From NCBI GenBank assembly GCA_038087875.1, contig CM075990.1, positions 13,518,001 to 13,578,000 on the forward strand: 60,000 nucleotides of DNA. The letters are read 5' to 3'. Made by a program: the position numbers and the translations under genes. The stretch comes from Malacoraja senta (taxonomy: Eukaryota). This document shows, piece after piece, positions 4,284 to 60,000 of the stretch (its first letter is position 1; every line of letters begins with the position of its first letter). The notes beneath the pieces are model-generated. The model searched no databases. It saw only the letters and a list, made by a program, of their open reading frames with translations, and was not told where the DNA came from.

Positions 4284-4411
4284 TGTCTGAAGAAGGGTTT
4301 CGGCCCAAAACGTTGCCTATTTCCTTCGCTCCATAGATGCTGCTGCACCCGCTGAGTTTCTCCAGCACTTTAGTCTACCTTCGATTTTCCAGCATCTGCA
4401 GTTCCTTCTTA
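4284..4411 (+). repeat. Penelope-derived solo 3' module with hammerhead-like motif (GAAA mutated to AAAA)
   Basis: Near-identical to 56219-56345. Confidence 0.85.
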
Positions 4412-5544: not shown

Positions 5545-5600
5545 CAGTCTGAAGAAAGGTCTCGACTCAAAATGCCACCCATTCATTCTATCCTGGGATG
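5545..5600 (+). repeat. Degenerate Penelope-derived 3' module
   Basis: cagtctgaagaaaggtctcgactcaaaatgccacccattc. Confidence 0.6.
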
Positions 5601-9800: not shown

Positions 9801-10950
9801 CGCACGGATGCTGCGCGGGGGCCGAGTTAATTCAAACACGGCGGGTCCCACGTGCTTGCGGTAAGTAAAAAAAAGGGCGGGCCGACTGCGATGACGTCGG
9901 CCCGCCGCACGTGACTCACCAGCGGCGGCTGTGGCGGCGGCCATCCTGATCGCGGTGCTGTAGCGGTGGCTGTGCCTGCGGCCGTGCAGCACACGTGCCT
10001 CACTGGCGGCGGCACGTGCCTCACTGGCGGAGGCTGTGGCAGTGGAGGTTTGACGCACGGCGCTCGAGCCACACTGGTGGCGGCCCGTGCGGGCGGCCGT
10101 GCCGCACTTGTGCATCACTGGTGGAGGTTGTGCGGTGAGTATATGTTTTTCGACATTGTCGATTTTATTTTAGCACCGCGCGGTGTTGGGAACACCGCCG
10201 CACGGCCCGGGAATTGTACGTTCTCACGAGTGCGCGGTCTATGGCGGCAGATTCTTCCCGTTTCTCCGCCAGTGACCGCAGACTCGTGAGACAGGCCTTT
10301 AACTGTCTAATTTCCTGTTCTAGCAACATTTGTTCTGTCTTGTTCTTTTTATTTTGGAACATTTCGTATGAAATTATAATTCCTCTAATAAATGCCTTAA
10401 ACGTTTTCCATAATAAAGAAGGCGAGGTATCTGGTGTATCATTTATCTAAAAAAAAAGTTTCATTTGTTGTTTTAAGTATTGATAACCTTGTAAGTCATT
10501 TAAGATATGTGTATTAAACCTCCAAAAAAAGTTTTTACCCAGCATTCCCTCAAATTTTACTGAAAAAGTCAACGGAGAGTGATCAGAAATACTACTAATG
10601 TGGTATGTTGGGTTGATTGTATATGGCATTAATTTCATATCCACTAAAAAATAATCAATTCTTGAATAAGTTTTATGTACCGAAGAGTAAAACGAGTATT
10701 CCCTTCCAACTGGATTCGCAGATCTCCATACATCTGTTATATTAGTATTTTTTATATATGTATTTAGAAGTTCACTAGTCTTAGATTTTAAATTACACCT
10801 CCTTTGCTTTGCTGATTTGTCTAAATATGGGTCTAAAACACAGTTAAAGTCCCCCCCCCCTATTATCACATTTTGGTAATTAAACTGATATTATATCTAT
10901 AATTTTATCAAAAAATTGGGGGTTATCAAAATTCAGAGCGTAAATATTTA
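6885..10950 (-). pseudogene. L1 ORF2 (partial APE endonuclease, RT, CCHC knuckle), disrupted
   Basis: GGDFNCVLDP, YSRIDYFL, SDHSP (endonuclease); SLDAEKAFD, RQGCALSPLLF, LYADD (RT); CDKC...H...C near 7240-7290; stops, frameshifts and a MITE insertion. Confidence 0.95.
9694..10299. mobile_element. GC-rich non-autonomous DNA transposon (MITE), TA TSD, inside L1 ORF2
   Basis: Imperfect ~40-bp TIRs aaggctctgtcttacctgtttgcggtcatcggcgg / ccgccagtgaccgcagactcgtgagacaggcctt; removing it and one TA restores the L1 frame EIRQLELDN. Confidence 0.9.
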
Positions 10951-11012
10951 TCTTTCATTATCAACAATGCATAACCACAACATTAAATGTAATCAGTTAA
11001 TGGTTTTATTTA

Positions 11013-12027
11013 TTATAACAATAGTAACCCATTTATCATAATGGGGGATTTAATACTGAATCCAGCATCACCAAACACCCCGGGATCTTTAATCTCCTTA
11101 TGGTAATACTTGTGAAACATCTGTTCACTTGCCCATCCTGCGGCCGCGAGGATAAGATCTATTGGAACGTCTGAATCCCTGGCCGCCGATGTTGATGCCG
11201 CCCTGGTGGAATGAGATTTAAATTTATCAGTATCAATACCTGAATAAATCAACACCTGTTTCAACCATCTTGAAATTGTCTGTGTTGACACCTTCTTATG
11301 AGGACTTTTATGACTGACAAAAAATGCTAATTCTGCACCTCTTAAAATTCTGGTTGTTTCCATGTAACACCTTATATATGTTACTACTCATAGCTGTGGA
11401 TCCGTAGGATATGCTGAAAACTGCAACTTACATCCCGTGAACCCAGGTCTACTTTGCTTCAGTAAATCATAGACATAGAATGTAACGGCATCTGCCCCCT
11501 ATTTTCATTCTGTCTATTCTTAATTTCTGTAATGTTTGAACTCTCTGAGCTGAAACTAATGCCATGAGCATAACCAACTTCATGGTGATTTTGGATAATG
11601 ACAGAGTTTCAATAGGATTCCATTCACGCAGCAGCATCAGTACATCTTTTACATTCCAGATTTCTGTATACCTAGGTCTAGGAGGATTGGAGTTGAAAAT
11701 TCCCTTCATAAACCTACAGACCCAAGGATGTGATTCTATTGGATTTTGTTCTGATTCACTGCTTAAATATGCAGAGAGTGCACTTCGTGCAGTATTGATT
11801 GCACTATAACTTAATTTTAATTCGTAGTAGAGAGTTGAAAGAAACTCTAATACATCTGAAATTTCTGCTGTGTTATATGCAATATTCTTTTCTGAACAAA
11901 ACACCTCCCATTTCTTTATATAAGAAATGCACTGCTTCTGGGTACTATTCCTCCAGGCTGCTGCCATAACATCCACCGTACGGTCTGATAATCCTCGTCC
12001 AAGATATGGCCTTTTCAGAATCTGCAA
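11013..12027 (-). pseudogene. DIRS-A tyrosine recombinase, frameshifted near 11480
   Basis: LVSAQRVQTL, FKSHSTRAA, AAGWAS, FHKYYHK motifs across ORFs 11467-12027 and 11013-11363. Confidence 0.92.
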
Positions 12028-12029
12028 AT

Positions 12030-13960
12030 CAACAAACCAATACGTTCATGTAAAGGATGTGGTTCATTAGTTACAGGGTTTACAAGCAGTTTTACCTGCT
12101 TTGGAATAACCATAAGGGGTTCTTTGATTATGTTTAACACCAGTGGGTACCATAGCTGTGTAGGCCAATCTGGCCCCACCAAAATTCCCGAGGCTGAGTC
12201 CTGTTAAATGTTCTGTATGCATCGATTGATTAAACAAAATGGAGGAAATGCATACAGAAACATATCACCCCAATGTAGCGAGAAAGCATCCACCGCTACT
12301 GCACCAGGATCAGGTTCCCATGACACATACTTAGGCAATTGGTGGTTAAGTCCTGATGCAAACAAATCAATCTGTGGCATTCCAAATTGTGTTACAATTT
12401 GCTTAAATATTTCCTGATGCAACATCCATTCTGTATTATCATTAAATTTACGTGATCTTTTGTCTGCAATTAAGTTAAATTTTCCTGGTAAATATATTGC
12501 TGACAGCCAGATTTTCCTGGCAATACACCAGGTCCACATTTCATTTGCCAATCTATCACATGATTCTGACTTGATACCACCCATGTGATTTATGTATGCT
12601 ACAGCTGTAGTATTGTCAACATGTACCTGAACATGCACATTTCCCATATTAGTGCAATAAGCTTTAAGACCATAAAATGCTCCTAACAGCTCTAGGTAAT
12701 TTATCCCTTGATTTTCAAGCCAAGGTACTTCATCCACATTCCACCTACCTCCACAGCTGGAAATCATGTTAGTTGCAACCCATCCAAGAGCACTTACATC
12801 AGTCTGTAGAATAACGGAAGGTGTTTCTACCAAAACTTTTCTGGAAGCATTAGAGACATTGTTAATCCACCATTCTATTTCTGTAATGGGTCCAATTGTC
12901 AATTGCATGGGCCTGTCAAAATGCCCTGTATTCATCTTTAATGCTTATACCTTAGCCCTCTGTAAACATTGATAATGCAATGGTCCAAATCTTACAGCTG
13001 GAAAAGCAGCAATTAATTTGCCCAGCAAGCTTGCCACTTGTCTAATTGAAGGCTTGTCCTCGTTTATGAGCTCAGTGCAACCTTCAATTAACTGCAGCCT
13101 TTTGTCTTTTGGCAAGGTGAATACCATGTGTTCAGAGTTAATTGTGAACCCCAGGTAATCAATCTTCTTGCTTGGTAACAATTTTGATTTTTGTAGGTGA
13201 ATAATGAAGCCCATTTTTTCAAAAAATGTACTTGAACCTGGAGAATGACAACTTTGCGGTAGGCAAAGTGTCCCCCACAATCAGAATATCATCCAAATAA
13301 GCCATTAATACATGGCCCTCAGCTCTTAGCAGAGCTAAAAATGGTTTGAGTAATTTTGTGAATAATCTTGGTGCTGAAGTCAGACCATTGGGCAATGCTT
13401 TAAATTGCCATAACTGACATTCATCTAAATTTTAAATATTTTTGATCATTACCATGCATTGCCACAAAATAATATGCATCTTGCAGATCTATGCTTGCCA
13501 TGTAGCAATTACTTGTGACCAGCTGAATGGCATTAGTAAATGTTTCCATTTTGAAATGTTTATATTGTACATAAAGGTTAAGACTTGTCAGATCCAGAAT
13601 AATTCTACAACCTCCATCCTTTTTTGTTCTAGGAAAAATATTTGACACAAACTGATGGTGTTGTTCTACTGACTTTTCTATTACCCCTTTGTCGCATAAA
13701 ATTTTCAATTCTCCCTCGATCAGCTTATTCTCTTCCTTTGAGAAAATCCGTGACCGGTTTGAATTATGCTGAATAGGAGGATCCAAATGTAAATAGAACT
13801 CAATTTTGAATCCCACAATGCTGCACAGTATAAACGAATCATTTGTTATTAATTGCCATTCTTTTAGGAAGAATCGTAACCTTCCCCCTATTTGTGAGTG
13901 TGAAACATTTGTTGTGTTTCTTACCAGACCAGGCCCCCCTACCTCAGGGTTTGCCACCGG
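12030..13960 (-). pseudogene. DIRS-A RT - RNase H - adenine-methyltransferase-like ORF, disrupted
   Basis: GGRLRFF, RIILDL, SIDLQDAY, LPNGLTSAP, YLDD (13288-13299), LQTDVSALGW, INYLELL, DNTTAVAYINHMGG, IDLFAS, YAFPPF. Confidence 0.93.
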
Positions 13961-13979
13961 CAAATGTTGTCCCCTTCTA

Positions 13980-14912
13980 GTAGGTACGTTGTAACCTCCA
14001 CGTATCCCCGGCGCAGCACGGCAATGTGTATATGAGAATGATCGGCTTGTTCCTTCTCCAGCACCAGCATTCCGTCTGTAGGGATACTGCCTTCGCACCG
14101 CTCTGCTCAGCATAGGTGGTTTCATCATCATACCACTCATGGTCTTTGACTCTTCATTTAGGTCCTTTAGCTTCTTTGCTAGATTTTCTCCAAAAAGCAG
14201 ATTAGGCATTTGTATATTGGATGGTTTACAGAGCCCTGCATACTTAGGATGAATATTTGGTCTTATTGCATTTTTACGAATACAGTTTATTTCAAAGTGC
14301 GCACTACACATGAGTGCTAAGGCATCTTGTTGTGAATCCGATATAAAATCTTCATCCAACCCCCTGGCAAACGCCGTAATGCCTGACCCCAGCAATTTCA
14401 GCACTCGTTGTAATTTCAATTCTTGTGAGCGTAATCCAATGCTCAAATAACCCCATATCAAGTTATTCACCGCTGGGACTGCTAGCAGTTCACAATTTGC
14501 CGGGGTCTCATATTTTTTAATAGTCTCATCCATAGTTAATTCCTGGAGCTGATGGGAGAGCAGATAATTTATAGTCATTGGCCTCTTCCATAGGCTAACA
14601 CGGACTGAAATCCTCCTGTGGGGGTTCTTTATAAATCATTTTCCCCATCAGAAGTTCCAAGCTCGTGACCCTAGCAGCCATTACATTTTCGGACTGGGGA
14701 GGGTATTCCTCCGGGTCTGACTCATCGGAGTCTGCTGGTCGTGTGGACTTTTGTCCTGCCTTGTGCCCCACCGCCGGTGGTATAACGGCACTATCGACCG
14801 CAACGGGAGTTAATGGCCTCGCTGCCACTGACTCCTCTAACTGACGCCCACTACCCTCAGGAACTTGGGTTTTACCTGTGGTGCGTCTCTTTCCCTTACG
14901 CCCTTTCTCCAT
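13980..14912 (-). pseudogene. DIRS-A gag-like ORF1, with internal deletion and stop
   Basis: MEKGRKGK start; YETPANCELLAVPAVN...ELKLQRVLK...NCIRKNAIRP homologous to DIRS-B ORF1. Confidence 0.85.
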
Positions 14913-15071
14913 GATGAACTTGCGTGGAGTCCACCAACAAGTCTGACGAGAAAAAAGCGCTCCTGGAAGTGAAAGTGAAAGCACTTACATTCCGACTTTT
15001 TGCTTTACTCACCGCTTGGAGGAGCTCCTGCTCCTCCACACACGGTCATGAACGCTATGCGTCTGACGATA

Positions 15072-17834: not shown

Positions 17835-17948
17835 AAAACTGCAAATGCTGAAAGTCTGAAATAAAACTGAAACAATCAGCAGGTCAGGCAGCATCTATGG
17901 ACAGAGAAGTAGAGTTATTGTTTCAATTCGGGGACCTTTCATTAGAAC
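17835..17948 (-). repeat. Old Penelope-derived 3' module
   Basis: Reverse complement: ttctaatgaaaggtccccgaattgaaacaataactctacttctctgtccatagatgctgcctgacctgctga. Confidence 0.65.
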
Positions 17949-19275: not shown

Positions 19276-19404
19276 TGAGAATCACCAACAAACTGTGGTA
19301 TAACTTAGCTTGAGTAAGGAGAAGATAGTTACTTAATGTCTTGTACAATGGGAAGAAGATTGTGTTTAATGTCTTTCTTCTGCCTATGACTAAGTATGGC
19401 CTAT

Positions 19405-19630
19405 CAGGAATAAAAACAGAATAAGCACTAAATACTCACAGGTTAAGCAACTGTAGTGGAGAGAGAATTGTAGTTAATATATTTTAGGTCAATGACCTTT
19501 TATCAGAATAAGCCATGAAGATTTGATGAAAGCACATTGGCCTGAGCTCTGTTCCTCTCTATCTAGATACTGTCCGACATTTATGAATATTTTTTTTTAA
19601 ATTTGGGATTTCCAGCATCTGCAGTTTTTT
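19405..19630. repeat. Head-to-head pair of old Penelope-derived 3' modules
   Basis: Minus copy (ctgataaaaggtcattgacctaaaa) next to a plus copy (ttgatgaaagcacattggcctgag...ttccagcatctgcag). Confidence 0.55.
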
Positions 19631-21130: not shown

Positions 21131-21380
21131 CCGCTTGGGCAGTTTGCACCCCAGTGGTATGAACATTGACTTCTCTAATTTCAGGTAGTCCTTACTTTCT
21201 CCTCCCCTTCTCAGCTCTCCCTCAGCCCTCTGGCTCCACCTCTTCCTTTCTTCCTCCCGCCCCCCCCTCCCCCACCCTCACATCAGTCTGAAGAAGGGTT
21301 TCGACCCGAAACGTTGCCTATTTCCTTCGCTCCACAGATGCTGCCTCACCCGCTGAGTTTGTCCAGCATTTTTGTCTACC
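21131..21380 (+). mobile_element. 5'-truncated Penelope-like element (ORF end + 3' module with hammerhead motif)
   Basis: RLGSLHPSGMNIDFSNFR* matches the 56104 C-terminus; 12-bp TSD tactggaaggat at 21111-21122 and 21381-21392. Confidence 0.88.
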
Positions 21381-22219
21381 TACTGGAAGGATAATTGGGT
21401 TGTAGTAGGTAATGTCCTGGGATTGTAGAAAATTAAGATTGTTTTACCTGCAATGTCGATTGAGTGGTGAATTGAATGATCTCAACACAGAGATAATGTT
21501 TAAAGAAATCAAGGGATATGGGATCAATGCACAAAATTGACACTGAGGAGCAGGCTCAAAAGATCTACTCCTGTTTCAACAAATGCTTTAATATTAAGAT
21601 ACTAATGGGAACCAACAAGAAAGAGGGAGATAAATCTCCACAGATGCTGCCTGACCCTCTGAGGTTTTACTTGCAAAGCTGCAGCAAGTAACAATGTTCT
21701 GTTCCTGGTTCACACGACAATTGATAATTGATTATTCTCTCTCTAGAGTTCCTCCAGCTGTTTTTTTTTGCTCAGGATTTCAGCATTTCTAGCCTCTTGT
21801 ATCTCCACTATGGGACATAATCTAAAAATTAGAACCAGGGCCAAGAAAGAATTTTAGGAAACACCTATACATGTCGGATTGATATAAATTTGAAACATTC
21901 TCCAGTGATCCTCAATTGTTGTGAGGCCATATTAATTTGAAGTGTGTGAAGATTTTGTTAATTAAAGGTTTTAAGGGGTAACTTAATACCCCTTTATACT
22001 CCTTACTATGGATCGACATTGAGAAGGAAATGGTTAGGTCTCAGATCAGCCATAATGTTATTAAATAGTTTAATAAGCTGGAAGGGTTGAAATGCATATT
22101 GTTGTTCCCACAGCACATCCTCAACCTTGTGCAACAGTAAAACAATTTCATTTTACTACCTAAATGAAGTGACTGCCATCACCAAAGCAAGTGACATTTT
22201 CTTCCTTTCTCATCCACAG

Positions 22220-23547: not shown

Positions 23548-24210
23548 CAAGTCAAGTCAAGTCAAGTGAGTTTATTGTCATGTGTCCCTGATAGGACAAT
23601 GAAATTCTTGCTTTGCTTCAGCACAACAGAACATAGTAGGCATTGACAACAAGGCATTCTATAAATATATACACACATGAATCAATATACTGATAAAGTG
23701 CAAATAACAGTATTGGCTAATAAAGTTCAGTGTTATGTCCGAGCCTGGTTTAATAGCCTGATGGCTGTGGGGAAGTAGCTATTCCTGATCCTGGTCGTTG
23801 CAGTCTTCAGGCTCCTGTACCTTCTACCTGAAGGTAGTAGGGAGATGAGTGTGTGGCCAGGATGGTGTGGGTCCTTGATGATACTGCCAGCCTTTTTGAG
23901 GCAGCGACTGTGATAGATCCCCTCGATGGAAGGGAGGTCAGAGCCGATGATGGACTGGGCAGTGTTTACTACTTTTTGTAGTCTTTTCCTCTCCAGGGCG
24001 CTCAAGTTGCCGAACCAAGCCACGATGCAACCGGTCAGCATGCTCTCTACTGTGCATCTGTAGAAGTTAGAGAGGGTCCTCCTTGACAAACCGACTCTCC
24101 GTAATCTTCTCAGGAAGTAGAGGCGCTGATGTGCTTTCTTAATAATGGCATCAGTGTTCTCGGACCAGGAAAGATCTTCAGAGATGTGCACGCCCAGGAA
24201 TTTGAAGCTA
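23548..24210 (-). mobile_element. Rex1/Babar-clade LINE, 5'-truncated, well preserved
   Basis: FKFLGVHISEDLSWS...AHQRLYFLRRLRR...RNSYFPTAIRLLN; aataaa + (cttga)n tail. Confidence 0.9.
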
Positions 24211-25232
24211 TCCCTATGATTGACTGCACTGCGGATATCTGCAATTTGAACAGTGGAAAATGTATATGATAATGCATTAGGACAATCCACTTTGTCAGAA
24301 TACTAAATATATTTGGTACAGTATTTTGATAGTTGAAAGGACTCCCTCAGGGAACCTGCCAATGGCTATCCAGAGGATGGCATGTGCATGATACAGTTTG
24401 GTAGGTTTTAAGAGAGAACCTTGCACTGCTTGGCATTAGCTTGCTTGCGTCAGGCCAAAAACAGCCACATAAGTAACATTCGGTATTTTCATAAAGTATT
24501 GCACTTGTAGTTTACTTTAACCCCAAAATGACAATATGATGACTGCTGTTTAAATGCACTCCTTTAATCACTGCCAAATTATAAAGAATTTACTTGTCAA
24601 AGGTCATGTGCCACAAAATGTTCTGAAAATCCTTGCTTTGTTTCAATTCGAGTGTTGTTTTTGTGTTCAGCATTTAGAACAACCAGTATAGTGTATAATT
24701 TTGCAACCCACTTGATTATACAGCATTCACTTAGCTGGGTGATTTAATGACCTTGCCTTTCATTTTCCTAAATCTTTTAATTGTTTATTTTGATGGGGCC
24801 ATTAAATTTATTGGCAAAAACGCACTTCAATTACTTAGGTGTCAAGAGCATTCCATCTAACCTGTAAAATTATGCATTGGTGATTTTGCATTTCTCCAAT
24901 AAATCTGTTCCATCAGTTTTCTGCATCCTGCCACTGAGTCTCATTCACAGTTTCACTGCTCACAAAGCCGTCATTAGCGCACACACACACCCATAATATA
25001 TTTCCCCACCAGACAATCACTCCTGCATTCTTGTGACACCAATGGGCACCAACTCTTGCACAATCATGGATAATATATGTAACTCCACACAGGAATACTT
25101 TTTTTCACACACACGTACAAATCTTACTGCCCCTTGCTCACCAGATTAGCACATTCCACCACCCCTTGCTCTTTGTATCTCTTCTTCACTCAACTTCATC
25201 TGATTTTGCCTATTGGGATCTTATCTGATTTT

Positions 25233-26139: not shown

Positions 26140-26236
26140 AGTCTGAAGAAGGGTTTCGGCCCGAAACGTTGCCTATTTCTTTCGCTCCATAGATGCTGCC
26201 TCACCCGCTGAGTTTCTCCAGCACTTTTGTCTACCC
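26140..26236 (+). repeat. Penelope-derived solo 3' module with intact hammerhead core
   Basis: gtCTGAAGAagggtttcggcccGAAAcgttgcc. Confidence 0.85.
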
Positions 26237-26831
26237 TAACAGCATGCTGGTTGAAATCTACCAGCAGTAAAGAACTTGAATTCTTATCTTCAAGCAAAGT
26301 AATCGCAGGGATGAAGAGAGTTGCTGTTTCAGCCTAGGCAGAGTCAGGGTCTTTAGGTTATGAAGGTGCTGGCTCTTCTTCACCTACTCCTGCCGTGCAG
26401 TTCACATTGTTTATGAGGACATTTTAAAAAAAAATCCCAGTACACTAGTGCATGGAAGATCTCAGTGTAATTTGCCTAAGTATGTTTTTAGTCATTGTGG
26501 TTAGCCTCATTTTGCCCAGTTTACAACTAAATCAAGGAAAGCACAATATAGTAATGTCATTCGATGCTTGCAGTCTACCACTGATTTAGCCCCCTGGATC
26601 CCATCCAGTAACACACACACAGCAAAGCCAATGCAGTTGACTGATACTAATTACTAGTCAAGTAATTACCAATGCTCTTCAAGTCACAAGTTGTCTAAAT
26701 TAGCAGAGTTTGTATCTATTTTTGAAATTGAATATCCATCCCATTTTCTTAAGATTAAACAAAAATGGGATCTCTGGTTTTTTGCTGCAGGATTTGGCTC
26801 TATTCCCTAATCCATCTTTCTAATAACATTG

Positions 26832-26928
26832 AAGGTAAACACAACATGCTGGAGTAACTCAGCGGGACAGGCAGCATCTCTGGAGAAAAAGAATGGGTGA
26901 TGTTTCGGGTCAAGACCCTTCTTCAGAC
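26832..26928 (-). repeat. Penelope-derived solo 3' module
   Basis: Reverse complement gtctgaagaagggtcttgacccgaaacatcacccattc. Confidence 0.8.
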
Positions 26929-27894: not shown

Positions 27895-29150
27895 ATGGAC
27901 AAGGGAAGAAAAAGAAAGAAAGTCGCGTCCCGTACACCTGTGGTGGACCAGGAAGGTTCCGGCAGTGGGGGGCGACCGACGGCACCGGGACCGCATTCCC
28001 TGCGGTCCACAGTCACCGACTGTAACACTGCGCAGCCAAGCCCAACGCCGCAAGCTGCTCAGCTGGAACCAACGTAGCGGGTTGGAGGCAAGGCGAAGCA
28101 GAAGTCGGTCCGGCCGATAGACTCGGACGAGTCCGGTCAGGAGGACGCGCTGCCTGAGAGCAGCAAAGGTGGCCGTCTATCCCGCATGGAGCGGTTGATG
28201 GAGCAGATGCTCCAGCGAGACTTGCTCCGGGAGATGGAGCAAGCTCTCCATGGGAGTGCTCGCACACCCACAACAGCACCGTATTCGGCGCTGTCCATCG
28301 TATCTCCCTCGACAGAGGGGAGCGTTGGGGGCCAGGGCTGGGCTGGCCTGGAAGAGGGATCATGGCTGAAGATACCAGCAGTGTGCTGGGGGTGCAGGAC
28401 CAGGAAGAGCTGCTAGGAGTGGTCAACATGTTTGGGGTACCACCGCAAGCGGGACAACCATTGCAGACCAAACTGGCGGCCAGTATAGACTACCTGTCCT
28501 TCCACCCTCTACAGGAACAGCTTGTCAATGAAACTATGGAAAAATATATACCTCCGGAGAACTGCATCTCGCTAAATGTACCCGCCGTCAACAGCCAAAT
28601 CTGGGGGTACATTGGGCTGGGCATAAGGGCCCAGGAGGTGAAGCTTCAGAAAATATTAAAACTTCTGACTTCAGCTATAACATCCTATGCTCGTTCTGTT
28701 GATGGGGTCGAAATGAGGGATAACCAGCAGGACACACTGGCCCTACTGTGTAATACACAGTATGAAATAAACTGCCTGCGGAAAAACGCCATCAAACCTG
28801 CCCTCAACCCCAAATTCGCAGGGTTGTGCAAAACTGCAACTGCACAGCCACAAATAATGCTGTTTGGGAAAGACTTGTCCAAACAAGTAAAAGAACTGGA
28901 CGAAGAGTCTAAAGCCGTTGGGCTTATGAGGGCAGCTGCAGGAACGAGCAAAACCACACACCCCAGGCGGCAGCACCCCTATGCATCCACCAGCAGGCAT
29001 CAACACCAGGGTGCTGGTGAAAGCATGAGGGTCGCACATCAACCACGAAGGTCTTTTTTAGGCCAAGGCCCAGAGCGGCCCTCATGGAAGATGCGCCAAC
29101 CCCACACTCCGGCGCCTCAACAAGTGAAGAGACAGTGGCCGAAGAAATGA
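27895..29150 (+). pseudogene. DIRS-B gag-like ORF1 (5' part frameshifted, 28362-29150 open)
   Basis: MDKGRKRKK start; YIPPENCISLNVPAVNSQIW...EINCLRKNAIKPALNPKFAGLC. Confidence 0.85.
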
Positions 29151-30401
29151 ACTTACCACCGGTAACCATGGACGTAGGTGGGTCTGGTTCCTTCCAGAAC
29201 ATAAAAGGTGTAGGTCCTGTACTAACAGGCGGAAGGTTACACTTGTTTTGGGAAGCATGGGGGACTATCTGGGATTCACAATTAACTCTGTCCACATGTC
29301 TGTAACATTGCCAAAGGACAAAGCAGCAGATTTGGTGGAAGTCTGCAACAAATTGATTGTTACTAATCAACCATCTATTCGACAGGTGGCAAAAGTAATT
29401 GGGAAATTAGTAGCAGCATTTCCAGCTACTCAGTTTGGACCTTTGCATTACCAAAATTTACAAAGGGAAAAGGTGCAAACGCTAAAACAACATAAAGGTC
29501 ATTTTGATCGGGCAATGCAATTACCAGCCAAGGCAATTTCGGAGTTACAATGGTGGAGAGAAAACATTTGGCATAGTTCCAGCCCCATTGTTATTAGTAA
29601 CCCATCATTCACATTACAAACGGATGCCAGTGCTCAGGGCTGGGGAGCAACTAACACTATATCTAGTACTGGTGGTAGATGGAACATACAAGAGTCATCA
29701 CTACAACAGAGACTGGGTATAAATTACTTAGAAATGTTGGGTGCGTTTTATGGGCTAAAAGCTTACTGTTCAGCTATGCACCATTTGCATGTCCGCCTAC
29801 AAATTGACACTATCACAGTGGTGGCTTATGTTAATCATATGGGTGGAATAAAATCGATATCGTGTGACGATTTGGTCAGCACAATTTGGCAATGGTGTGT
29901 CGACAGACATATTTGGCTATCAGCAACTTACCTACCAGGTAAGCTCAATACAGTGGCAGACACCAGGTCACGAAAATTTAATGACAACACCGAATGGATG
30001 TTGAACCACAAAGTATTTGCTGATATTACAATGCGGTATGGTACACCTGATATCGATCTCTTTGCATCCAGTCACCAGTTACCAACATATGTCCCTTGGG
30101 AACCAGACCCTGAGGCAGCAGCGATGGACGCGTTTTCGCTGAATTGGGGAAAATAGTTTTCTATGCCTTTCCCCCCTTCTGCCTCATCAGTCGGGTCCTA
30201 CGCAAAATACAAATGGACTCAGCTTCAGGTATTTTGGTAGTACCCGATTGGCCTACACAGCCATGGTTCCCTGTGGTCCTCGACATGGTCTCTGAACCAC
30301 TCATGACCATTCCCAAAAGACCAGATCTCTTGATCCATCCTGTTAAGGGCGAAAGTCATCCATGCCATGACAGGATAAATCTGTTGGCTTGCAGAATTTA
30401 A
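29147..30401 (+). pseudogene. DIRS-B RT (deleted core) - RNase H - methyltransferase-like ORF
   Basis: GGRLHLFWEAW joined directly to DYLGFTINS; LQTDASAQGWG, INYLEML, PDIDLFAS, FYAFPPF, VVPDWPTQPWFP; frameshift near 30150. Confidence 0.92.
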
Positions 30402-31372
30402 AAAGACCTCTTTTGGATCTGGGATTATCGGACAGGACCATGAACATGATCACGGCGGCCTACCGAGAATCGACTAAGAAGCAGTACCTCTCCAGAATTC
30501 GGAAGTGGGAAGCGTACTGCTCAAGGACTGGGGTAGCATACAAATCAGCTACAATTACCAATGTCCTGGAGTTCCTATCCAGCCTTCACTTTGATGAAGG
30601 ACTGAGTTACAGCACAATTAACAGTGCTAGGAGTGCTCTGTCAGCATATTTATGGCAGGCACCGGGACAGCAGTCCATGGGATCCCACCCTCTAGTTGCC
30701 AAACTAATGAGGGGTATCTACAACACCAATCCCCCCAGACCAAGGTACACCCAGATCTGGGACATCAGTGTTGTACTGACATTGCTAAGGGGTTGGTCAC
30801 CAGCAATGTCCCTGTCCCTGGAACAGCTCACACTAAAAACAGTAATGCTGATGGCTTTGGTCTCAGCTCAAAGGGTCCAGTCCCTATACAAATTAAGATT
30901 GGACAATATGAAATCATCAACTGACAAGATAACCTTCCGGATCTTGGAGTTGGTTAAACAGAATAGACCGGGAACTTCGGGACTGGGTTTGGAATTCCGG
31001 GCATACCCACCTGACCCCCGTTTGTGTGTCATGACACACCTACTGCTTTATCTTAGGACAACAAAATCCTTAAGAGGTAGCGAAATGGCATTATGGGTTA
31101 GTTTCAAACAGCGTCATGGACGGGTGTCAGTACAGAGCATCTCAAGGTGGCTCAGACAGGTTCTGGGGGCTGCTGGGGTGGATACTGACATTTTAAAATC
31201 TCACTCCACCAGGGCAGCAGCAACATCGGCGGCAAGAAATATGGATGTACCAATGGACCATATCCTGGCGACAGCGGGATGGTCTACGGAAAAGACTTTC
31301 CAAATATTTTATAATAAGCCGATCGCCAAACCTGCAGTGTTTGCAGAAAGAATTTTAAGTTCTGCAATATAA
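30389..31372 (+). CDS. DIRS-B tyrosine recombinase, open 327-aa ORF
   Basis: Catalytic set present: R (SAQRVQSL), HxxR (SHSTR), W (AGWS), Y (FQIFYNKP). Confidence 0.92.
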   Translation: MQNLKRPLLDLGLSDRTMNMITAAYRESTKKQYLSRIRKWEAYCSRTGVAYKSATITNVLEFLSSLHFDEGLSYSTINSARSALSAYLWQAPGQQSMGSHPLVAKLMRGIYNTNPPRPRYTQIWDISVVLTLLRGWSPAMSLSLEQLTLKTVMLMALVSAQRVQSLYKLRLDNMKSSTDKITFRILELVKQNRPGTSGLGLEFRAYPPDPRLCVMTHLLLYLRTTKSLRGSEMALWVSFKQRHGRVSVQSISRWLRQVLGAAGVDTDILKSHSTRAAATSAARNMDVPMDHILATAGWSTEKTFQIFYNKPIAKPAVFAERILSSAI

Positions 31373-32901: not shown

Positions 32902-33026
32902 AAGAAAGAACTGCAGATGTTGGAAAAATCGAAGGCAGACAAAAATGCTGGAGGAACTCAGCGGGTGAGGCAGCATCTATGGAGAGAAGGAATAGGCGAC
33001 GTTTCGTGTTGAGACCCTTCTTCAGT
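32902..33026 (-). repeat. Penelope-derived solo 3' module
   Basis: Reverse complement ctgaagaagggtctcaacacgaaacgtcgcctattcc...ttccaacatctgcagttctttctt. Confidence 0.82.
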
Positions 33027-33933
33027 AAGTGGGCGGGAGAGTGGGTCAAGCTGGATTGCTGCTTCATACACCTGGTATAGAGTCGATAGACAGAGTGAGA
33101 CCTTCCGTACTCATTCTGTCATTCTGCGTTCAAGTCCTTTACTTACGTTGTATCCAGAGCATATAAAATTGCCTGGGATTTCTCTCCTGATAATGATAGC
33201 CAAAATGTAGGGTGCAGTGGTTTCATTGGGGGAATTGTCCAATTATGCCCTTAAAAATGTATCAATTACAATTTTGAAATGCTCTATTGGACATCCCAGC
33301 TGCAACAGTTTATAGAACGAGAGGGCCCCAAACACATTATGTAAAGAGTTGCTTCTTGTCATCAGATAAGTTTCTGATTGTTAGATTATGATCTCCTGTG
33401 GTACACTCACCATGTTAAAAGCAAACTGCTGATTTGTATTTGCTGTTCCCTTAAACCGACAGTGGGCATGGTGCTACCACAAAGAGGTCTGCCTCTTTAA
33501 GAATGGCTCCACCGTGCCCATATCCTCAGTCTGAACATGTAGCTTGCAGCCACAGAGCACTGTCCTTTGCTTAGCTTGGGTTATCTCTGGCCTGACAAAT
33601 CCTAATGACAAAAAGATCTATCAAAGAAAATTAGACTGCAAGCAGATACCGGCTCTGTTTAGCTTGGTAATCTGATCTGTGTCAGACTGAATGTTTAGCC
33701 CAGGGCAGTATACATCCAAATCAAATCAACGACTGCTGCATTCTGTGGCCGGACACATTTGTGTATAAACATCTATGCCAAAACGGGATCTGGAGAATTG
33801 TGCTTGATGTATGACAACATCAACAATTTCCATTAATACAGTATCTTTAATGTAGCAAATTAACCCAACATGCTTCACTGGAGACTTTGAAAACAAGACT
33901 ATTGAGGCTAAGTGACTAAAACCAGTGATCAAA

Positions 33934-34041
33934 GTCTGAAGAAGGGTCACGACTCGAATCTCAACCCGAAACGTCACCCATTCCTTATCTCCAGAGATGC
34001 AGCCTGGCCCGCTGAGGTACCACTTTGTGTCTACCTTCGAT
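33934..34041 (+). repeat. Penelope-derived solo 3' module with partly duplicated stem II
   Basis: ctgaagaagggtcacgactcgaatctcaacccgaaacgtcaccc. Confidence 0.75.
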
Positions 34042-35724: not shown

Positions 35725-36052
35725 TACTCCAGCATTGTGTGTCCTTTTTTATAAACCAGCATATGCAGTTCCTTGTTTCTACATTTTACTGCTCCACAAT
35801 AACATCTCCTTAAGATATGCCTACCTTGAAGAAGTTCTCGTCCTCTCTCCAACGAGAGTTCTGTGTGACCCTCTGTCACTGCTACCCCTCTGTGATCCCT
35901 GTTGCTCTGCTGCTCCTTGATGAATCCAAAGAAGGATCCTGACCCAATACATCGGCCAACCATGTTCTCCAGAGATGTTGTCTGACCCACTGAGATTACC
36001 CCAGCACTTTGTGTCTTTTTTGTAAACCTGGATCTGCAGTTCCTTTTGTCTG
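35725..36052 (+). repeat. Degenerate Penelope-related segments (two partial 3' modules)
   Basis: ctccagcattgtgtgtcc...ccagcatatgcagttcc and agatgttgtctgacccactgag...tctgcagttcc. Confidence 0.55.
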
Positions 36053-41437: not shown

Positions 41438-41625
41438 GAAGGTAGACAAAATTGCTGGAGAAACTCAGCGGGTGCGGCAGCATCTATGGAGCGAAGGAAA
41501 TAGGCAATGTTTCGGGCCGAAACGTTGCCTATTTCCTTCGCTCCATAGATGCTGCCACACCCGCTGAGTTTCTCCAGCACTTTTGTCTACCTTCGATTTT
41601 CCAGCATCTGCAGTTCCTTCTTAAA
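41438..41625. repeat. Penelope 3' module with 5' inverted copy (hairpin 41438-41594)
   Basis: Arms of about 78 bp centred on tttcgggccgaaa. Confidence 0.88.
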
Positions 41626-44600
41626 CATGTCAATTGCTCTTAACAAGTGAGACTTGAACTAGCAGCCATCTGCTTCAGAGTGCAAAATGCTTCCCACCAG
41701 ATTACAGCTGGTAATGCATTCATAATATAGAATAAAAACCTTTGAACTAATGCGATATTCCAAAGAAGTCTGGATTTTTTGATGTCCACATTTTCATAGC
41801 CTCCGATTGAGGTGGCAATTGGTGCAACTATTAGTGCTGTTGCCCCAATGCTCCAAGGGTCTGGATTTAATCCCAGCCTCTAGTCGTAGTTGAGGTGTGC
41901 AGTATATGAATGTTCTTCATGATCTCATGGCTTTCCTCCAGGTGTTCTTGTCAGTAGCATGCTGGCAGCTTAATTGGATACAGTAAATATGAGTTAATGG
42001 AGGCTGGTGGCAAAAAGAATCAAAGGAGAGTTGCTGGGCATGTATGAGAGAGAATAAATTGCTGGGGTATAGCACAATAAGGAGAGGTGGAATGGGATTT
42101 CTCCCAAAGAGCCATCATGGACTTAATGGGCTTGCATAGCCTCCTTTGTTGTTGCCTGTGTAAGATAAAGAGTGAATCTTCCACTTAATTTTGATGTTCT
42201 TATTTCTGCTCTAAATGAAAGAACCTGTGGAAGGCAGTTCTTAAATCAGACAAAAAATCCTGGAATCTTTTGGAAGTTAGCAATATCAGGGTCCAGCAGT
42301 TCCTTTGTGTATTGTAGCCAAGGCGACTGAGTTTCTGTTCCACAGTTGTTGTTCCTAAGAATAAGTCAATGGTCGCAGAAGTCCAATGAATAAAGACAGA
42401 ATCGGGCAGAATCTGCCACAGGAAAGAAATAGGCTATGATTATTCCTCAAAATTGGTTTATGTTGCAGATTCCTGTCCCTGAGGTCAGGGCTCTTACGAT
42501 ATATGGTTGCAGGTGACAGTGGGTGTGAAATAGCAGTATGTGTTAACTGAATGCAGAAGCTAGTCCCTGGTACAAGGAAATCTGATCACAGCGCAGAAGT
42601 AAATTTCAACAGTTTCTGTCCTTACATCTAGGATATATTAATTAAAATATTATTAATTTCATGTTTGAATGTTACTGGGTCCGTTGATGGAATTTCAAAG
42701 CCTGCAATTTCTGATTGCAAAACATTTGGTCCTGGTTTATTGATGGAGAAGTCAAACCCACTGAAGCAAACAGCCAAACTATTAACACCCCATTAATCCC
42801 AATAAATGAAATCTAGCAATAAACGTGGAAAAAGTAAAGGTCAATCCAAATTAAAATGGTGATATCTCAAGATTGGTTTGCTATGAAAACAGAATAATTG
42901 TCTTTCATTTAAATTGGAATGAAATATGGATTTTGATGGATGACCTTTTGGACCAATCCTTTGAGCAAGAAAGGATTGCCTGGGAAATTAAATAAAATTA
43001 TACAATTATACAGTTGGAAAAGTTTCTACAGTTAAATGTGATAATAACGATTTCCAGATTGCTCTGCACCACTCTGGAATTTCTGTGTGTGATACAACCT
43101 TCAGGAGTTCCAGTCAACATGACCACTTGACCGGGAATTCCTGAAGACTCTGGGACTACGGATGCTGGCCATCGCATTCCCCCACCCCTCAGTTGTGACA
43201 CCCAGTCAGCACATTTCCACAACCTTAACCATTTAATGCTTTTAACTGCCATTAAACCATCCTTGGCTATCTCCTCAAGAGAAGATACCCAGTCTGTTCA
43301 TCCTTTCCTGATATGCAAACCTTACATTTCTGTTAGTAACGTAAATCTCTCTATGCCCTCTCCCATATCTCTATATTCATATTATATGTTGACAAGGCTG
43401 TAAAAGTACTCTTAAATGTGCTGTAACCAATGATGAGCAATACTTCCCAACTTATCAATTCTGTCCCTTTTGAAATAAATTCTAGACATTACATACAATC
43501 TTTTATGGTATCAATAAATGGTTTACTGTAGGGTGGTTTTAATTGGTAGGTGACTAGTTGGAACCCATTTGGCTCCCTTTACTAATGGGATTTAAAAAAT
43601 GCATTGTGAGTATTTACATAACATGTTAATGTACATCAGTATTTTGGGCCAATTTGCAGTCTGTGGTCTTGCATTTTTTTGTATTATCATCCTTCAGTGA
43701 TTTATTCAGATTCAGTGCAAATACATCTTTTGAGCACTCTGTTGCCTCTATCACAAAACAACAGCAAGACACAAGACGTAGTGAGATGCGAATCATTTTA
43801 TAGCTGTTATGTCCAATGTATTTTTTTTTTCATTTTAATCAATGTATTCCATTAATTGCAAAAGGATTTTTGTTCCTGACACTCTATGTGGTGCCCAACC
43901 ATCATTCAAACCAAAGTTAAATAAATTACATTGCAAGTTAATATAGGCGCATGAAAAAAGTCTACTATTACAGTATATCCTGAAATTAAAGCATTGAGCT
44001 GTACAGCACGGAAATGGCCCTTCAGCCTATCTTGTCCACCTTTAAAAAGTGATTAAAATGGAAAATCCTACATTTGACTGATCATATTAATTTAAATTGC
44101 AGAAAAGTTGGATATTTTATTACACAGGCAGAGGTTGAGTTGTTGGCAGGTAATGAAAGCAACATTTGTTAGTTATGCCACTGCTGGGACACAGACATTT
44201 AGATAGAGAAAAGATGTTAATATTTCAGATGCAGGCATGTCAGAATCTCTGATACTGTGCTTGTTTGAAGCATTAATTCATTTTTGTTCTGTTCAATGGA
44301 CTGGCTCTGCATCTACTGACGTTACTTTAAGCATTTACATTTTTTTTCCTGTCGATCCAATGTGACTTCAAATACAGAAAGAGAGGACAGTTGTGACTCT
44401 GGTTCAATTCCAAACACAGGCATTGGTTGGTGGCTTCATCACTGAGAGGGATGGAAGGAATGAGAACTGCACCTCCCAGTCAAGCAGTCAACTGTGCCAG
44501 TGCCAAAGCAGGAACAGACATAGCTTCAAAGAGTGCAGTGCCTTTATTCCTTATCACTGAATCAATAAATAATTTCTAGAGCCGATCGTCAGCTTTGAAA

Positions 44601-45680: not shown

Positions 45681-45858
45681 CTTCTTCTTATCGAGTCCAC
45701 ACACAAGATTAGAAGTTGTTCAGCCAGAGCTGAACACACGTCTCGGCATCTGCATACAATGGTGTCCGTCTTATCGCTTCTTGTGCTTCTTGTGCGTGGC
45801 GGTTGAAAGATTGGTGGAAAAAGCGGGGCCGCGACGTGAACGCTCTTTCCTTGACCCC
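45681..45858 (-). mobile_element. Short retroposon 3' fragment with (AAG)n tail, probably RTE-type
   Basis: Begins cttcttctt on +; 11-bp TSD agc(t/c)gaggggt at 45670-45680 and 45859-45869 interrupting CR1 ...ctgaggggtgacct. Confidence 0.65.
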
Positions 45859-50292: not shown

Positions 50293-50390
50293 GTCTGAAG
50301 AAGAGTCTCGACCTGAAACGTCACCCATTCCTTCTCTCCAGAGATGCTGTCTGTCCCGCTGAATTACTCCAGCTTTTTGTATCTATCTTT
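50293..50390 (+). repeat. Penelope-derived solo 3' module
   Basis: ggtctgaagaagagtctcgacctgaaacgtcacccattcc. Confidence 0.8.
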
Positions 50391-52199
50391 GTTTAGTAAT
50401 ACTTTGACCACTGAGTAGAAAACATAGTTTTAATGCACTATTCTAGGACCAACGCATAGTGTAGGCCGAGACCAGTGCCATGTTGATGGAGCTCTTGCAT
50501 CTTCAGATGAGGTAATGAACTCTGCTCCATCTTGTTTACCCTTGAGGTTCAGATGAATGTTAAAGGTCTTGAAGTACTTTGAAATAGGGCATTATTTAGT
50601 CATTTATCAAATGAAGTTGTTGCAGTAAACGGCACCATTTATTTTCATATTTACATTCCTAATTGGTCACACACCAAGGAGTCAACCACATCGCTGGATG
50701 TGGAGTTACATATAATCAAATATAGGGAAGGGATCGGTGATTTCCTTCCCTCAGGAACATTAATGAAACAGATGAGTTTTTGCAACCACCCAATAGTTTC
50801 AAGGTTACTGCCACTAAGATTAGCTTTAATTCCAACTATGTTCAATTAATTGAACTTAAATTCCCCAGTTGCCATTGTGGCATTCAAACACATGTCTCTG
50901 GATCAACAGTTCAGAACTCCTGCTGTTGTGGCAGTCATTTTACTATTGTTTTGCCATGTAACATTATCGAAAATTAAGCAGTTTTAAATTTTAAATTGAA
51001 AGTTGACCTAGCATCAGGTGTATTTGCAAAAGATTTCCCCTAAATTTCAGCTAATAATTTCTATTCAGAAATATTACCAAAAGCTTTCTGGAAGCTTAAA
51101 TCAATTATATTCATAGATTGTCCCTATCCAACAGTTGGATATTTTGTAAAAAAAAAATGCAGTCAAGTTCAACAATTGATCTGGTGACATCATTTACTGA
51201 ATATGCTCCTGAGCAATGCTATTATTACAAAACTGGTGAATTGAACCCTATGTTTTAGGTGAATTGAACTTTTCACACGCCCATTCTCCAATTGCCAATC
51301 ATGTAGTGGTCTGTTGATTCATTGGGTTGTGAGGTCATTCTCACCCCTGCACTATCTGTGGCATTTCAACAAGTCCCATTGTCTTTTTCCTGTTTCCCAA
51401 CGCTGAGTCCACTAAACGTGTGACCAGCGTCAATTATCTTCTATATATGTGACTATCTTCAATTATACAGTGTTTATTATCCTCTTTCTTTCTACAGTGA
51501 CAATTATACTCTATGATGAATGTGATCATTACAATAAATCAACGGCAAAGGGCCAGATATTAAGGCTTTATTCAGACAGTGACTTTTATGGTTTCAGGAA
51601 AAATGAGTTTGCGCTTAATCTGATTCTCTGGGACACAAGTCTGGAGCACAGAAATGCCAATAATTCACCACTAATTGAAGAATGGCACATTTGTGTAGGA
51701 GGTGATTCTCTTTAGGTTTCAAGCTGGTTTTTTCTAGGGGTGCTTTGTGAGGGTTTTTTTTGGTGATATTTGAATACTCGATCAATGTATTGCAAGCCTC
51801 AAACAGAAGATTGGCTACTAATTTCATAAATGTACATGTCAAAGTGTTATAACTTAATATTTTGGCTTTGAAATGAGAGAAATCAAGCCACCAAAGCCAC
51901 CCGTGAATGTGTCTAAAACATTTGAGCATTATCCATCTGTGATTTACAATTGTTTATTTTAATTAGTGCTAAATTAAGACTAGTTGTATGCTGGAGTTGC
52001 TGATGTACTCTTTTAGTATTTGAGCTTCCTTATTGGGAACAGGGACCAATGCATTAAATTAAAAAAAAAAAGTATATACTTAAACATGGCAACCTGGAGA
52101 TTCTGTTAGGGTGTAATAGTTTGTCTAACAGAAATGGAGACATTTCAGCCAAAGGTGCAGCAAGCAATTTGACTATCTGTTGGATTTCTGGGAGGATAT

Positions 52200-54880: not shown

Positions 54881-55075
54881 ACTGCCAACAGTCATAAAAA
54901 CACAAAATACATGAAACATGAAATGAAAATGACGAGTGGAAAGGTGGAATGGCTTGGGGAATGTGAAAAGATGGGGGGGGGGGGGGGGGAGGAGTCAGTC
55001 TCAGTCGACCCCATGACAGAAGGGGGAGGAGTTGTACAGTTTGATAGCCACAGGGAAGAAGGATCTTCTGTGACC

Positions 55076-56104
55076 CACATACAACTGACTGACTTCATCC
55101 GCTTCACCACCAACTTCCATCCGGCACTCAAATACACCTGGACCATTTCCGACACTTCCCTACCATTCCTTGACCTCACTATCTCCATCGCAGGTGATAG
55201 ACTCCTTACCGACATCCACTACAAACCTACCGACTCCCATGGCTATCTGGACTACACTTCTTCCCACCCTGCTTCCTGTAAGGACTCCATCCCCCACTCC
55301 CAATTCCTCCGTCTACGCCGCATCTGCTCCCAGGATGAGGCGTTCCACACCAGGGCATCTGAAATGTCCTCATTCTTCAGGGAACGGGGGTTCCCCTCCT
55401 CCACCATAGATGAGGCTCGCACCAGGGTCTCTGCCATACCCCGCAACACTGCTCTCTCTCCCCATCCCCCCACTCACAACAAAGGCAGAGTCCCCCTAGT
55501 CCTCACCTTTCACCCCACCAGCCGTCACATACAACAAGTGATCCTCCGTCAGTTTCGCCACCTCCAACGTGACCCCACCACTCGCCACATCTTCCCATCT
55601 CCCCCTATGTCTGCCTTCCGCAAAGACCGCTCCCTCCGTAACTCCCTTGTCAATTCTTCCCTTCCCTCCCATACCACCCCCTCCCCTGGTGCTTTCCCTT
55701 GCAACCGCAAGAGATGCAACGCTTGTCCCTTCACTTCCCCCCTCCACTCCATTCAAGGACCCAAGCAGTCGTTCCAGGTGCGACAGAGGTTCACCTGCAT
55801 CTCCTCCAACCTCATCTATTGCATTCGCTGCTCTAGATGCCAGCTGATCTACATCGGTGAGACCAAGCGGAGGCTTGGCGATCGTTTCGCCGAACACCTC
55901 CGGTCGGTCCGCAATAACCAACCTGAACTCCCGGTGGCTCAGCACTTCAACTCCCCCTCCCATTCCGTATCTGACCTCTCTGTCCTGGGTCTCCTCCATG
56001 GCCACAGCGAGCAACACCGTAAATTGGAGGAAATGCACCTCATATTCCGCTTGGGCAGTCTACATCCTGGGGGCTTGAACATTGAATTCTCCCAATTCTG
56101 CTAG
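55076..56104 (+). CDS. Penelope RT C-terminus/thumb + Cys linker + GIY-YIG endonuclease (open, N-truncated)
   Basis: LPFLDLTI, HYKPTDSHGYLDYTSSHP, CNRKRCNAC, NLIYCIRC..C..IYIGETKRRLGDRFAEH, GLNIE. Confidence 0.92.
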   Translation, partial: HIQLTDFIRFTTNFHPALKYTWTISDTSLPFLDLTISIAGDRLLTDIHYKPTDSHGYLDYTSSHPASCKDSIPHSQFLRLRRICSQDEAFHTRASEMSSFFRERGFPSSTIDEARTRVSAIPRNTALSPHPPTHNKGRVPLVLTFHPTSRHIQQVILRQFRHLQRDPTTRHIFPSPPMSAFRKDRSLRNSLVNSSLPSHTTPSPGAFPCNRKRCNACPFTSPLHSIQGPKQSFQVRQRFTCISSNLIYCIRCSRCQLIYIGETKRRLGDRFAEHLRSVRNNQPELPVAQHFNSPSHSVSDLSVLGLLHGHSEQHRKLEEMHLIFRLGSLHPGGLNIEFSQFC

Positions 56105-56218
56105 CCCTGGCTGTCCCCTCCCCTTCATCAGCCATCTGGTTGTCCCCTCCCCTCCCCCAGCCCTCGGGCTCCTCCTCCGCCTTTTCCTTTTTTCCTTTCT
56201 TCTCCCCACCCCCTATCA

Positions 56219-56250
56219 GTCTGAAGAAGGGTTTCGGCCCGAAACGTTAC
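56219..56250 (+). ncRNA. Minimal hammerhead ribozyme motif in the Penelope 3' repeat
   Basis: CUGAAGA-A-[GGGU-UUCG-GCCC]-GAAA-CG-UU; palindromic ACGU stem III; stem I only about 2 bp. Confidence 0.65.
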
Positions 56251-56481
56251 CTATTTCCTTCGCTCCATAGATGCTGCTGCACCCGCTGAGTTTCTCCAGC
56301 ATTTTTGTGTACCTTCGATTTTCCAGCATCTGCAGTTCCTTCTTTAACATTCTGTGACCTTCTGTCCTGCATCTTGGTGGAACCAGTCTGTAGCTGAAGG
56401 TACCCCTCAGGTTGACCAGCGTGTCATGGAGGGGGTGAGCTGTATTGTCCACGATGCTCCTTGTGATTGTAGCCCCCTGAG

Positions 56482-59461: not shown

Positions 59462-59565
59462 CTTCTGATGAAAGATCCCTGACCTGAAACATTAACTTTG
59501 TCCTTCTCTCCATGTGAGCTGCCAGACTACTTTTTCAGGCATAGTCTGCTACATTTCAGCATCCG
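59462..59565 (+). repeat. Old Penelope-derived 3' module with CTGATGA core
   Basis: ttCTGATGAaagatccctgacctGAAAcattaac. Confidence 0.6.
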
Positions 59566-60000
59566 GAGTATACTAATTTTGTGTTTGCCCTGATCTATCT
59601 GTCTGAGCAGTCTCTTCAAAGGGAAGTGGGTATCGTCGGTGAAGTGGTCAAGTCATCCAACATGGCCTGAAAGTTTAAAATGGTGGGTATGAAGACCATA
59701 AGCACTGGCAGTGGGTGAGTTATTAAAGAACGATCAGCGTGTGCACTCATAACCAGAGTAAAATAGCAATAGCAGAGGCACTAGGTCAATTTACTGGCAT
59801 ATGTACTGAATCTTTTAGTTTCTCTTGTAATAAATGCCATGAAATCAAAACGTTGAATGCAATATGTGAGTAAATTGGTCAGCTCCTTCTAAAACTGGCA
59901 TGAAGACAAAGGGCTTAATGCTCTTTCTGTGCTCTAAAGTTGATCTTAATGTGAGTTTAGAGGTGGGAGCCAAGATCTTACAAAGAAAGCTCAGCAGTAT

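Follow-up and report, generated by a model that had tools for sequence, protein, structure and literature searches.

Near the right-hand end of the 60,000-nucleotide stretch of Malacoraja senta DNA analysed here (the window), a Penelope-like element closes with a hammerhead ribozyme motif, and short solitary copies of the same terminal segment, its pseudo-LTR (pLTR), are scattered through the window. The question raised by this locus is what sets the ends of these solo copies, and whether the ribozyme that they carry has any part in the life of the element. From the sequence comparisons given below we consider it fairly probable that the solos would be run-off cDNAs ending at the capped start of a transcript, just before the ribozyme, and that a minority of copies beginning at +28 would record self-cleavage in vivo. 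Positions with a sign are counted from the C of CTGAAGA (0, window position 56221), and the genome sampled comprises 1.94 Gb.

The focal insertion is 1.27 kb long, 5'-truncated and flanked in the sequence by a 10-bp target-site duplication (TSD). It is composed as follows:

55066–55075, + strand: left TSD, TTCTGTGACC, read from the sequence
55073–56104, + strand: 3' part of a 5'-truncated Penelope-like ORF, reaching from the end of the RT over a C-x4-C-x2-C linker into a GIY-YIG endonuclease that shows CCHH-type residues
56105–56215, + strand: 3' UTR containing a polypyrimidine tract
56216–56220, + strand: TCAGT, initiator-like, where transcription putatively starts and solo copies have their 5' boundary; it doubles as the 5' strand of stem I
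56219–56250, + strand: minimal type I hammerhead, from descriptor search, fold prediction and cut-site junctions
56221–56227, 56228, 56229–56240 and 56241–56244, + strand: core, extra A, stem II and GAAA of the hammerhead
56244–56247, + strand: palindromic ACGT, followed by the predicted cut at 56248/56249 (after +27, by hammerhead numbering)
56251–56314, + strand: remaining pLTR to the first common 3' end (+92/95), putative RT start 1
56315–56349, + strand: optional 35-nt tail ending at +128, putative RT start 2
56350–56359, + strand: right TSD, read from the sequence

By eye, the focal copy appears to be inserted within another repeat of LINE type.

A Penelope minimal hammerhead downstream of a GIY-YIG ORF had been proposed in the first-pass annotation, and this is borne out, the motif beginning 116 nt past the stop codon. 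The GIY-YIG match of the focal ORF is weak (E 3e-4, under the Pfam cut-off), and in a longer copy, L133, RT and GIY-YIG lie within one 1026-aa frame (RVT_1 E 7e-6 and GIY-YIG E 1e-3, both under the Pfam cut-off). Full-length elements run from a pLTR through ~35 nt to an ATG near +163, the RT and GIY-YIG ORF, the UTR and a second pLTR. Their single ORF with RT and C-terminal GIY-YIG, the partial tandems that form the pLTR, the inverted 5' copies and the optional tail of 30–40 bp are those of EN+ Penelope-like elements, and the linker between RT and endonuclease, CNRKRCNAC, has the form C-x2-5-C-x-x-C, a mark of the Neptune clade that is common to Nematis (PMC8557442). The element is, on this linker shared with Nematis, provisionally assigned as a Neptune-type Penelope-like element (RT and GIY-YIG). 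In three copies (L133, L154 and L165) the N-terminal part of the ORF contains in-frame repeats with units of 42 bp and ~70 bp, whose number differs among copies.

The letters of the ribozyme are as first described (core, stem II with UUCG loop, palindromic ACGT and GUH site): CUGAAGA is followed by an extra A, a stem II of GGGU/GCCC closed by a UUCG loop, GAAA, a palindromic ACGU and U17. The CUGANGA and GAAA core with a UH site (H17 being U or C according to subfamily), the G10.1–C11.1 pair of stem II, the unpaired base after A9 and the palindromic stem III together correspond to a minimal type I hammerhead. A descriptor search returned 48 matches in 1 Mb of random genome compared with 0–1 in each of three shuffles, mostly because one repeat family is present; the bulge occurs in 46 of the 48 matches and the CG dinucleotide in 39. 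The short stem I and the extra A, raised earlier as caveats, are both present, but are ordinary features of the class, in which an extra nucleotide and a short helix I are normal (PMC4209133). The compensatory variation claimed for stem II is not supported: across 82 aligned copies its changes are one-sided (U-A/U-G), pair 8:19 is G-C in 55, G-U in 15 (CpG decay), A-C in 5, A-U in 1 and otherwise unpaired in 6, and A-U at 10.1:11.1 is confined to very old variants, in which it is rare (2 of 55 exact pattern matches, mutually identical, most of the 55 being insertion variants of younger copies). An Rfam scan of the window found no hammerhead family at E ≤ 5, and its MIR1507 match is an inverted pLTR pair. 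In predicted folding the catalytic fold is not the minimum either as monomer or as dimer (dimer core −6.5 vs −24.7 kcal/mol), which agrees with the low activity described for the minimal hammerhead class, for which dimer cleavage by Lunse et al. is cited in a review (PMC6765202).

With nhmmer the window gave 15 matches, among them the focal copy and each arm of an inverted pair. The copies and older relatives of the family in the window are:

4285–4410, + strand: solo pLTR with tail, start −2, 10-bp TSD
5534–5600, + strand: older-subfamily copy with ~15 nt of UTR and decayed 3' end
17867–17944, − strand: very old relative, core decayed
21131–21381, + strand: truncated copy of a related subfamily with ORF end and UTR; the motif at 21283 has 174 nt of upstream sequence
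26140–26235, + strand: solo pLTR without tail, start −3
26825–26928, − strand: older-subfamily solo pLTR, start −2
32902–33026, − strand: solo pLTR with tail, start 0
33933–34041, + strand: solo pLTR with loop II insertion and short TSD, start −3
35727–36045, + strand: old end-to-end copy, with a pLTR end, 5'UTR/ORF start and pLTR again
41438–41628, both arms head to head: inverted pLTR pair, its pivot the stem II palindrome
50293–50394, + strand: older-subfamily solo pLTR, start −2
59462–59590, + strand: very old relative whose core reads CTGATGA; its end is approximate
near 930–1030 and 19385–19510, − strand: other old variants

All copies listed in the first-pass annotation exist and most start at −3 to 0; the exception is the copy at 5545, which carries ~15 nt of subfamily UTR and does not start at the core. 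The inverted pair at 41438–41628 was missing from that list.

Abundance was estimated from 100 evenly spaced 10-kb stretches (1 Mb) with a profile built on the window copies, which gave 384 matches per Mb, covering 3.3% of bases and present in 85 of the 100 stretches. This extrapolates to ~7e5 matches in the genome, with inverted arms counted separately, and one exact 57-mer occurs 7,079 times genome-wide. Plotting the 5' ends confirmed the shared 5' boundary proposed earlier as non-random genome-wide. Among 92 unique young copies (95 of the first 100 exact matches listed, all from the first 30 Mb of contig C1, minus 3 duplicates), a set blind to ends downstream of 0, 50 begin at −6 to 0 (mode −2), 3 at −16 to −10, while 39 have over 60 nt of additional upstream sequence. 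Ordinary random 5' truncation would account for the scattered ends of the 39 long copies, but predicts only ~1.1 ends at −6 to 0 from the upstream rate, which is exceeded ~46-fold per base there; as an explanation of the near-core class it is already refuted, and we regard it as extremely improbable. In the unbiased 1-Mb sample, 38 of 55 young copies have their 5' end at −6 to +12 (8 upstream of −6, 20 at −6 to 0, 18 at +1 to +12 and 9 beyond) and none starts at +28. Many ends at +10 come from inverted pairs that turn about the palindrome of stem II. The 3' ends of the same 55 copies are bimodal, 29 at +82 to +101 and 26 at +122 to +130, nearly all copies terminating at ~+92/95 or +128/130, which correspond to the two ends tied to internal RT starts in an anole element (PMC11167929). 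An automatic search detected TSDs of at least 7 bp in 30 of 44 near-core copies that carried no inversion flag, 2 of the 30 looking like chance. With their TSDs and two defined 3' ends, the solos are therefore separate insertions whose 5' end is non-random and is not the cut site; the boundary lies ~30 nt upstream of the scissile bond and is therefore not made by cleavage. Contigs of other organisms (X1, X4, X5 and X8) placed on window positions 55700–56351 show the same family, with loose ends piled at 56215–56218, near 56305–56314 and at 56349. Recombination between pLTRs was also considered as the origin of solos and rejected, upstream pLTRs having no fixed 5' end.

The solos had been read as a ribozyme-associated, SINE- or retrozyme-like family mobilised by Penelope. 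Their abundance and non-random 5' ends stand; a separate family defined by the ribozyme is not supported. An independent non-autonomous family, transcribed from its own loci and mobilised in trans, would fit the very high copy number (both the profile matches and the exact 57-mers), the non-coding tandem arrays with an intact core in each unit (periods 254, 260, 275 and 384) and the pLTR-derived retrozyme monomers already described (bioRxiv 10.64898/2026.07.22.740005). However, the solos have no private sequence, having the same letters as the autonomous element's pLTR and being colinear with it over their whole length; they stop at +93/+128 and so do not contain the stretch farther downstream on which the anole protein depends for priming (PMC11167929); and their 5' ends are ragged across ~18 nt. 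As judged by eye, they contain no Pol III boxes at usable spacing, and they have neither the internal Pol III promoter nor the unrelated head of a SINE; nor do they run from cut site to cut site, and none in the window repeats a unit with a complete hammerhead two or more times in a row, as a retrozyme would. We therefore hold an independent family to be quite unlikely.

What the solo boundary represents was addressed through the joints that elements form with themselves. A search for pLTR-to-5'UTR junctions gave 482 matches, in some of which a point at +165 to +860 is joined back to the pLTR. A census by two gapped searches with exact anchors and a gap of at most 65 nt (20 and 96 matches), whose search window favours downstream acceptors, yielded 56 junction events after merging of array units, duplicates and overlaps, read by eye and post hoc. 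The sequence restarts at −8 to 0 in 27 of them, at +1 to +8 in 9, at +9 to +27 in 4 and at +28 in 10, the remainder lying at +29 (2), at +33/34 (3) or being unclear (1). Several of these end-to-end junctions carry oligo(A) at the join, as expected for RNA 3' ends. Where untemplated inserts precede a restart at −4 to −2, 9 of 11 end in G (10 of 13 including L289 and L299; p 7e-4) at positions where the genome has T, C or A, which suggests a cap, although untemplated C addition by RT would look alike. The excess of G is absent where solos join target DNA (26 of 87, p 0.31, after leaving out 13 likely inversion partners; 39 of 100 listed before that removal). The loci L289 and L299 halt at −3 to −5 on both passes.

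The TCAGT at this point resembles the initiator consensus. A similar initiator-like motif, TCACT, lies within another pLTR (PMC3846280), and an internal promoter within a pLTR has been described (PMC2377424). We infer that the solo 5' boundary is better explained as a transcription start than as a processing or stall point, that is, a 3' splice acceptor, trimming by an exonuclease back to the foot of the folded ribozyme, or pausing of the RT. Processing or stalling would account for the polypyrimidine tract followed by CAG|T, textbook acceptor-like at −2/−1, for the end mode at −2, the first base of stem I, and has a precedent in the D. virilis Penelope intron, which ends at helix I (PMC4209133). 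Against it, solos adjoin their TSD or short filler with no common upstream exon, several reach into the unspliced sequence at −4 to −13, and the G-ending inserts are specific to the start-zone end. In addition, ORF-linked 5' pLTRs that reach the core never stop at −6 to 0 (0 of 20, vs 50 of 92 solos; Fisher p 2e-6), the 20 excluding three that end past the core (+81, +47 and L300 at +25 to +28) and two with internal deletions (L294 and L257); the start zone is therefore no general RT roadblock. A processing or stall point appears unlikely. Among the joints listed in contigs of four related-organism runs, no GT..AG skip into −1 was found.

The second point at which junctions accumulate is the predicted scissile bond. 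Seven of the 10 junctions at +28 lack microhomology (Poisson p ~1e-6 vs an assumed 0.5), and 4 of these 7 carry A-rich inserts, of which 0 of 4 end in G; the other 3 of 10 have 1–3 nt of microhomology. In an older subfamily, 15 junctions are distributed as 2 at +28 (1 exact), 6 at −9 to −3, 4 at +2 to +5 and 3 elsewhere. Genome-wide, filtered ends number 180 at +28, 27 at +31 and 588 at −3, with filter pass rates of ~21%, 14% and 32%, respectively, so that after correction +28 ends are in ~4–6-fold excess, as measured against one control position (+31) at which ~10 of the 27 ends resemble small deletions. The 30 inspected +28 loci comprise 9 solos, 14 inverted arms, 2 junctions, 1 other and 4 internal deletions. 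Ends at +28 are a minority of all copies; where they fall precisely on the predicted bond, they are likely traces of self-cleavage in the germline in vivo. Were the ribozyme inactive, the +28 spike would have to come from microhomology or from RT pausing in the palindromic stem, for which the three microhomologous junctions, the internal deletions and inverted-pair arms among the inspected loci and the weak predicted fold could be cited. The seven microhomology-free junctions, four of them with A-rich inserts, speak against this, as does the scarcity of events over the 19 positions from +9 to +27, which hold only 4, and the coincidence of the spike with a bond fixed beforehand by hammerhead numbering. 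We consider an inactive ribozyme unlikely.

Array L266 (138 bp, 11 units) and array L306 (165 bp, 4 units) are tandem arrays built of units that start at +28 and have no core; neither has a clear TSD, and their unit number may therefore come from later DNA-level expansion. Consecutive units (at least two), each with a complete hammerhead, are present in the non-coding arrays L277 and L302–L305; four of the arrays with an intact core per unit, L302–L305, have TSDs and RT-start 3' ends. Arrays of this kind fit the definition of a retrozyme given in bioRxiv 10.64898/2026.07.22.740005. At G000:C5488:71464-80370, a 192-bp tandem repeat (36 units listed) spans +3 to +194 of the element with an incomplete core.

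A cycle that would join these observations begins with RT priming inside the RNA at two sites in the 5' pLTR and copying backwards, as judged from the anole element (PMC11167929). On a linear RNA begun at TCAGT (−4 to −2), RT would run off after 95–130 nt and the product, once joined to the target, would be a solo; two such run-off cDNAs meeting at the palindrome would give the inverted pairs. End-to-end joining of RNAs would connect short ends in the 5'UTR or ORF start, some with oligo(A), to −8 to +8 or exactly to +28. Two hammerheads would cleave as a dimer, the released unit would be ligated into a circle, and RT running round that circle would produce ORF-length partial tandems and retrozyme-like arrays. 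ORF-length copies need UTR and pLTR to be continuous, so that their template would be a circle or a long read-through multimer. From a capped dimer transcript one would expect ORF-length copies with their end at −3. No such copy turned up, which is why circles are invoked, the lack of ORF-length copies stopping at the start site favouring ribozyme-made circles as template. That the hammerhead cuts in the germline, with circles templating full-length, partial-tandem and retrozyme copies and capped linear RNA yielding solos only, is put forward tentatively, at somewhat short of an even chance. If the circles are real, the ribozyme would be required for productive transposition and would be no passenger, and Penelope insertions would preserve, as fossils, every stage of the RNA cycle of the element.

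Neither the element class nor its ribozyme is new, and solo and inverted pLTRs, like the retrozymes derived from pLTRs, are known as well. The metazoan Penelope minimal hammerheads of Cervera and de la Pena 2014 (PMC4209133) share the type I core, the extra nucleotide after position 9, G10.1–C11.1, the palindromic 15.2–16.2, the short helix I and the occurrence mostly as motifs scattered singly; the same paper put forward circles as templates. In the available part of that paper, single motifs are attributed to truncation and their ends are unmapped, whereas here the ends fall on two sharply defined putative RNA termini. Like the present element, Poseidon_Ac of the green anole (Frangieh et al. 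2024, PMC11167929) has two internal RT starts that give rise to an optional tail, and both DNA strands are extended. Its ORF, in contrast, starts inside the ribozyme, which here lies ~135 nt upstream of the ATG, and its cleavage is dispensable in vitro with no reads ending at the cut, whereas here there are genomic copies that begin at that point. The loci L277 and L302–L305 resemble animal non-LTR retrozymes (PMC7229834; bioRxiv 10.64898/2026.07.22.740005) in being non-coding arrays derived from the pLTR in which every unit has a core; the retrozymes differ from the solos, which are not tandem, from the coreless units of L266 and L306 starting at the cut, and from the C5488 units starting at +3 without an intact core. 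A search of open-access main texts brought up no study in which insertion ends are mapped to a transcription start or scissile bond, and Penelope-like hammerhead function is stated to be unclear, possibly parasitic, in PMC8557442.

The junctions and arrays at the predicted scissile bond may thus amount to base-precise genomic evidence of cleavage, obtained by an end-mapping analysis that can be repeated wherever a genome holds young copies. A transcription start at the boundary would account for a repeat covering ~3% of the sampled DNA, and the arrays show a possible one-step origin of retrozymes from a Penelope transcript. LTR elements make minus-strand strong-stop DNA by priming near the RNA 5' end and running off at the cap. 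The proposed solo route differs in that the primer would be nicked target DNA, so that the short product itself would be integrated.

Other features also lie in the window. A broken DIRS-like element at 7366–14984 (− strand) has ORF fragments matching RT (E 4e-40), a PCIF1_WW-like domain and a tyrosine-recombinase SAM-like domain, and a second DIRS-like remnant at 28158–31372 (+ strand) includes a tyrosine recombinase ORF at 30371–31372. At 45825–45858 (− strand) the HDV-like CPEB3 ribozyme model is matched in part, at 29.9 bits against a gathering score of 35 (E 6e-4), and an HDV-like ribozyme associated with a retroelement is one possible source of this match; a LINE-like 3' fragment at 23733–24302 (− strand) carries a match to Pfam ALKBH8_N.
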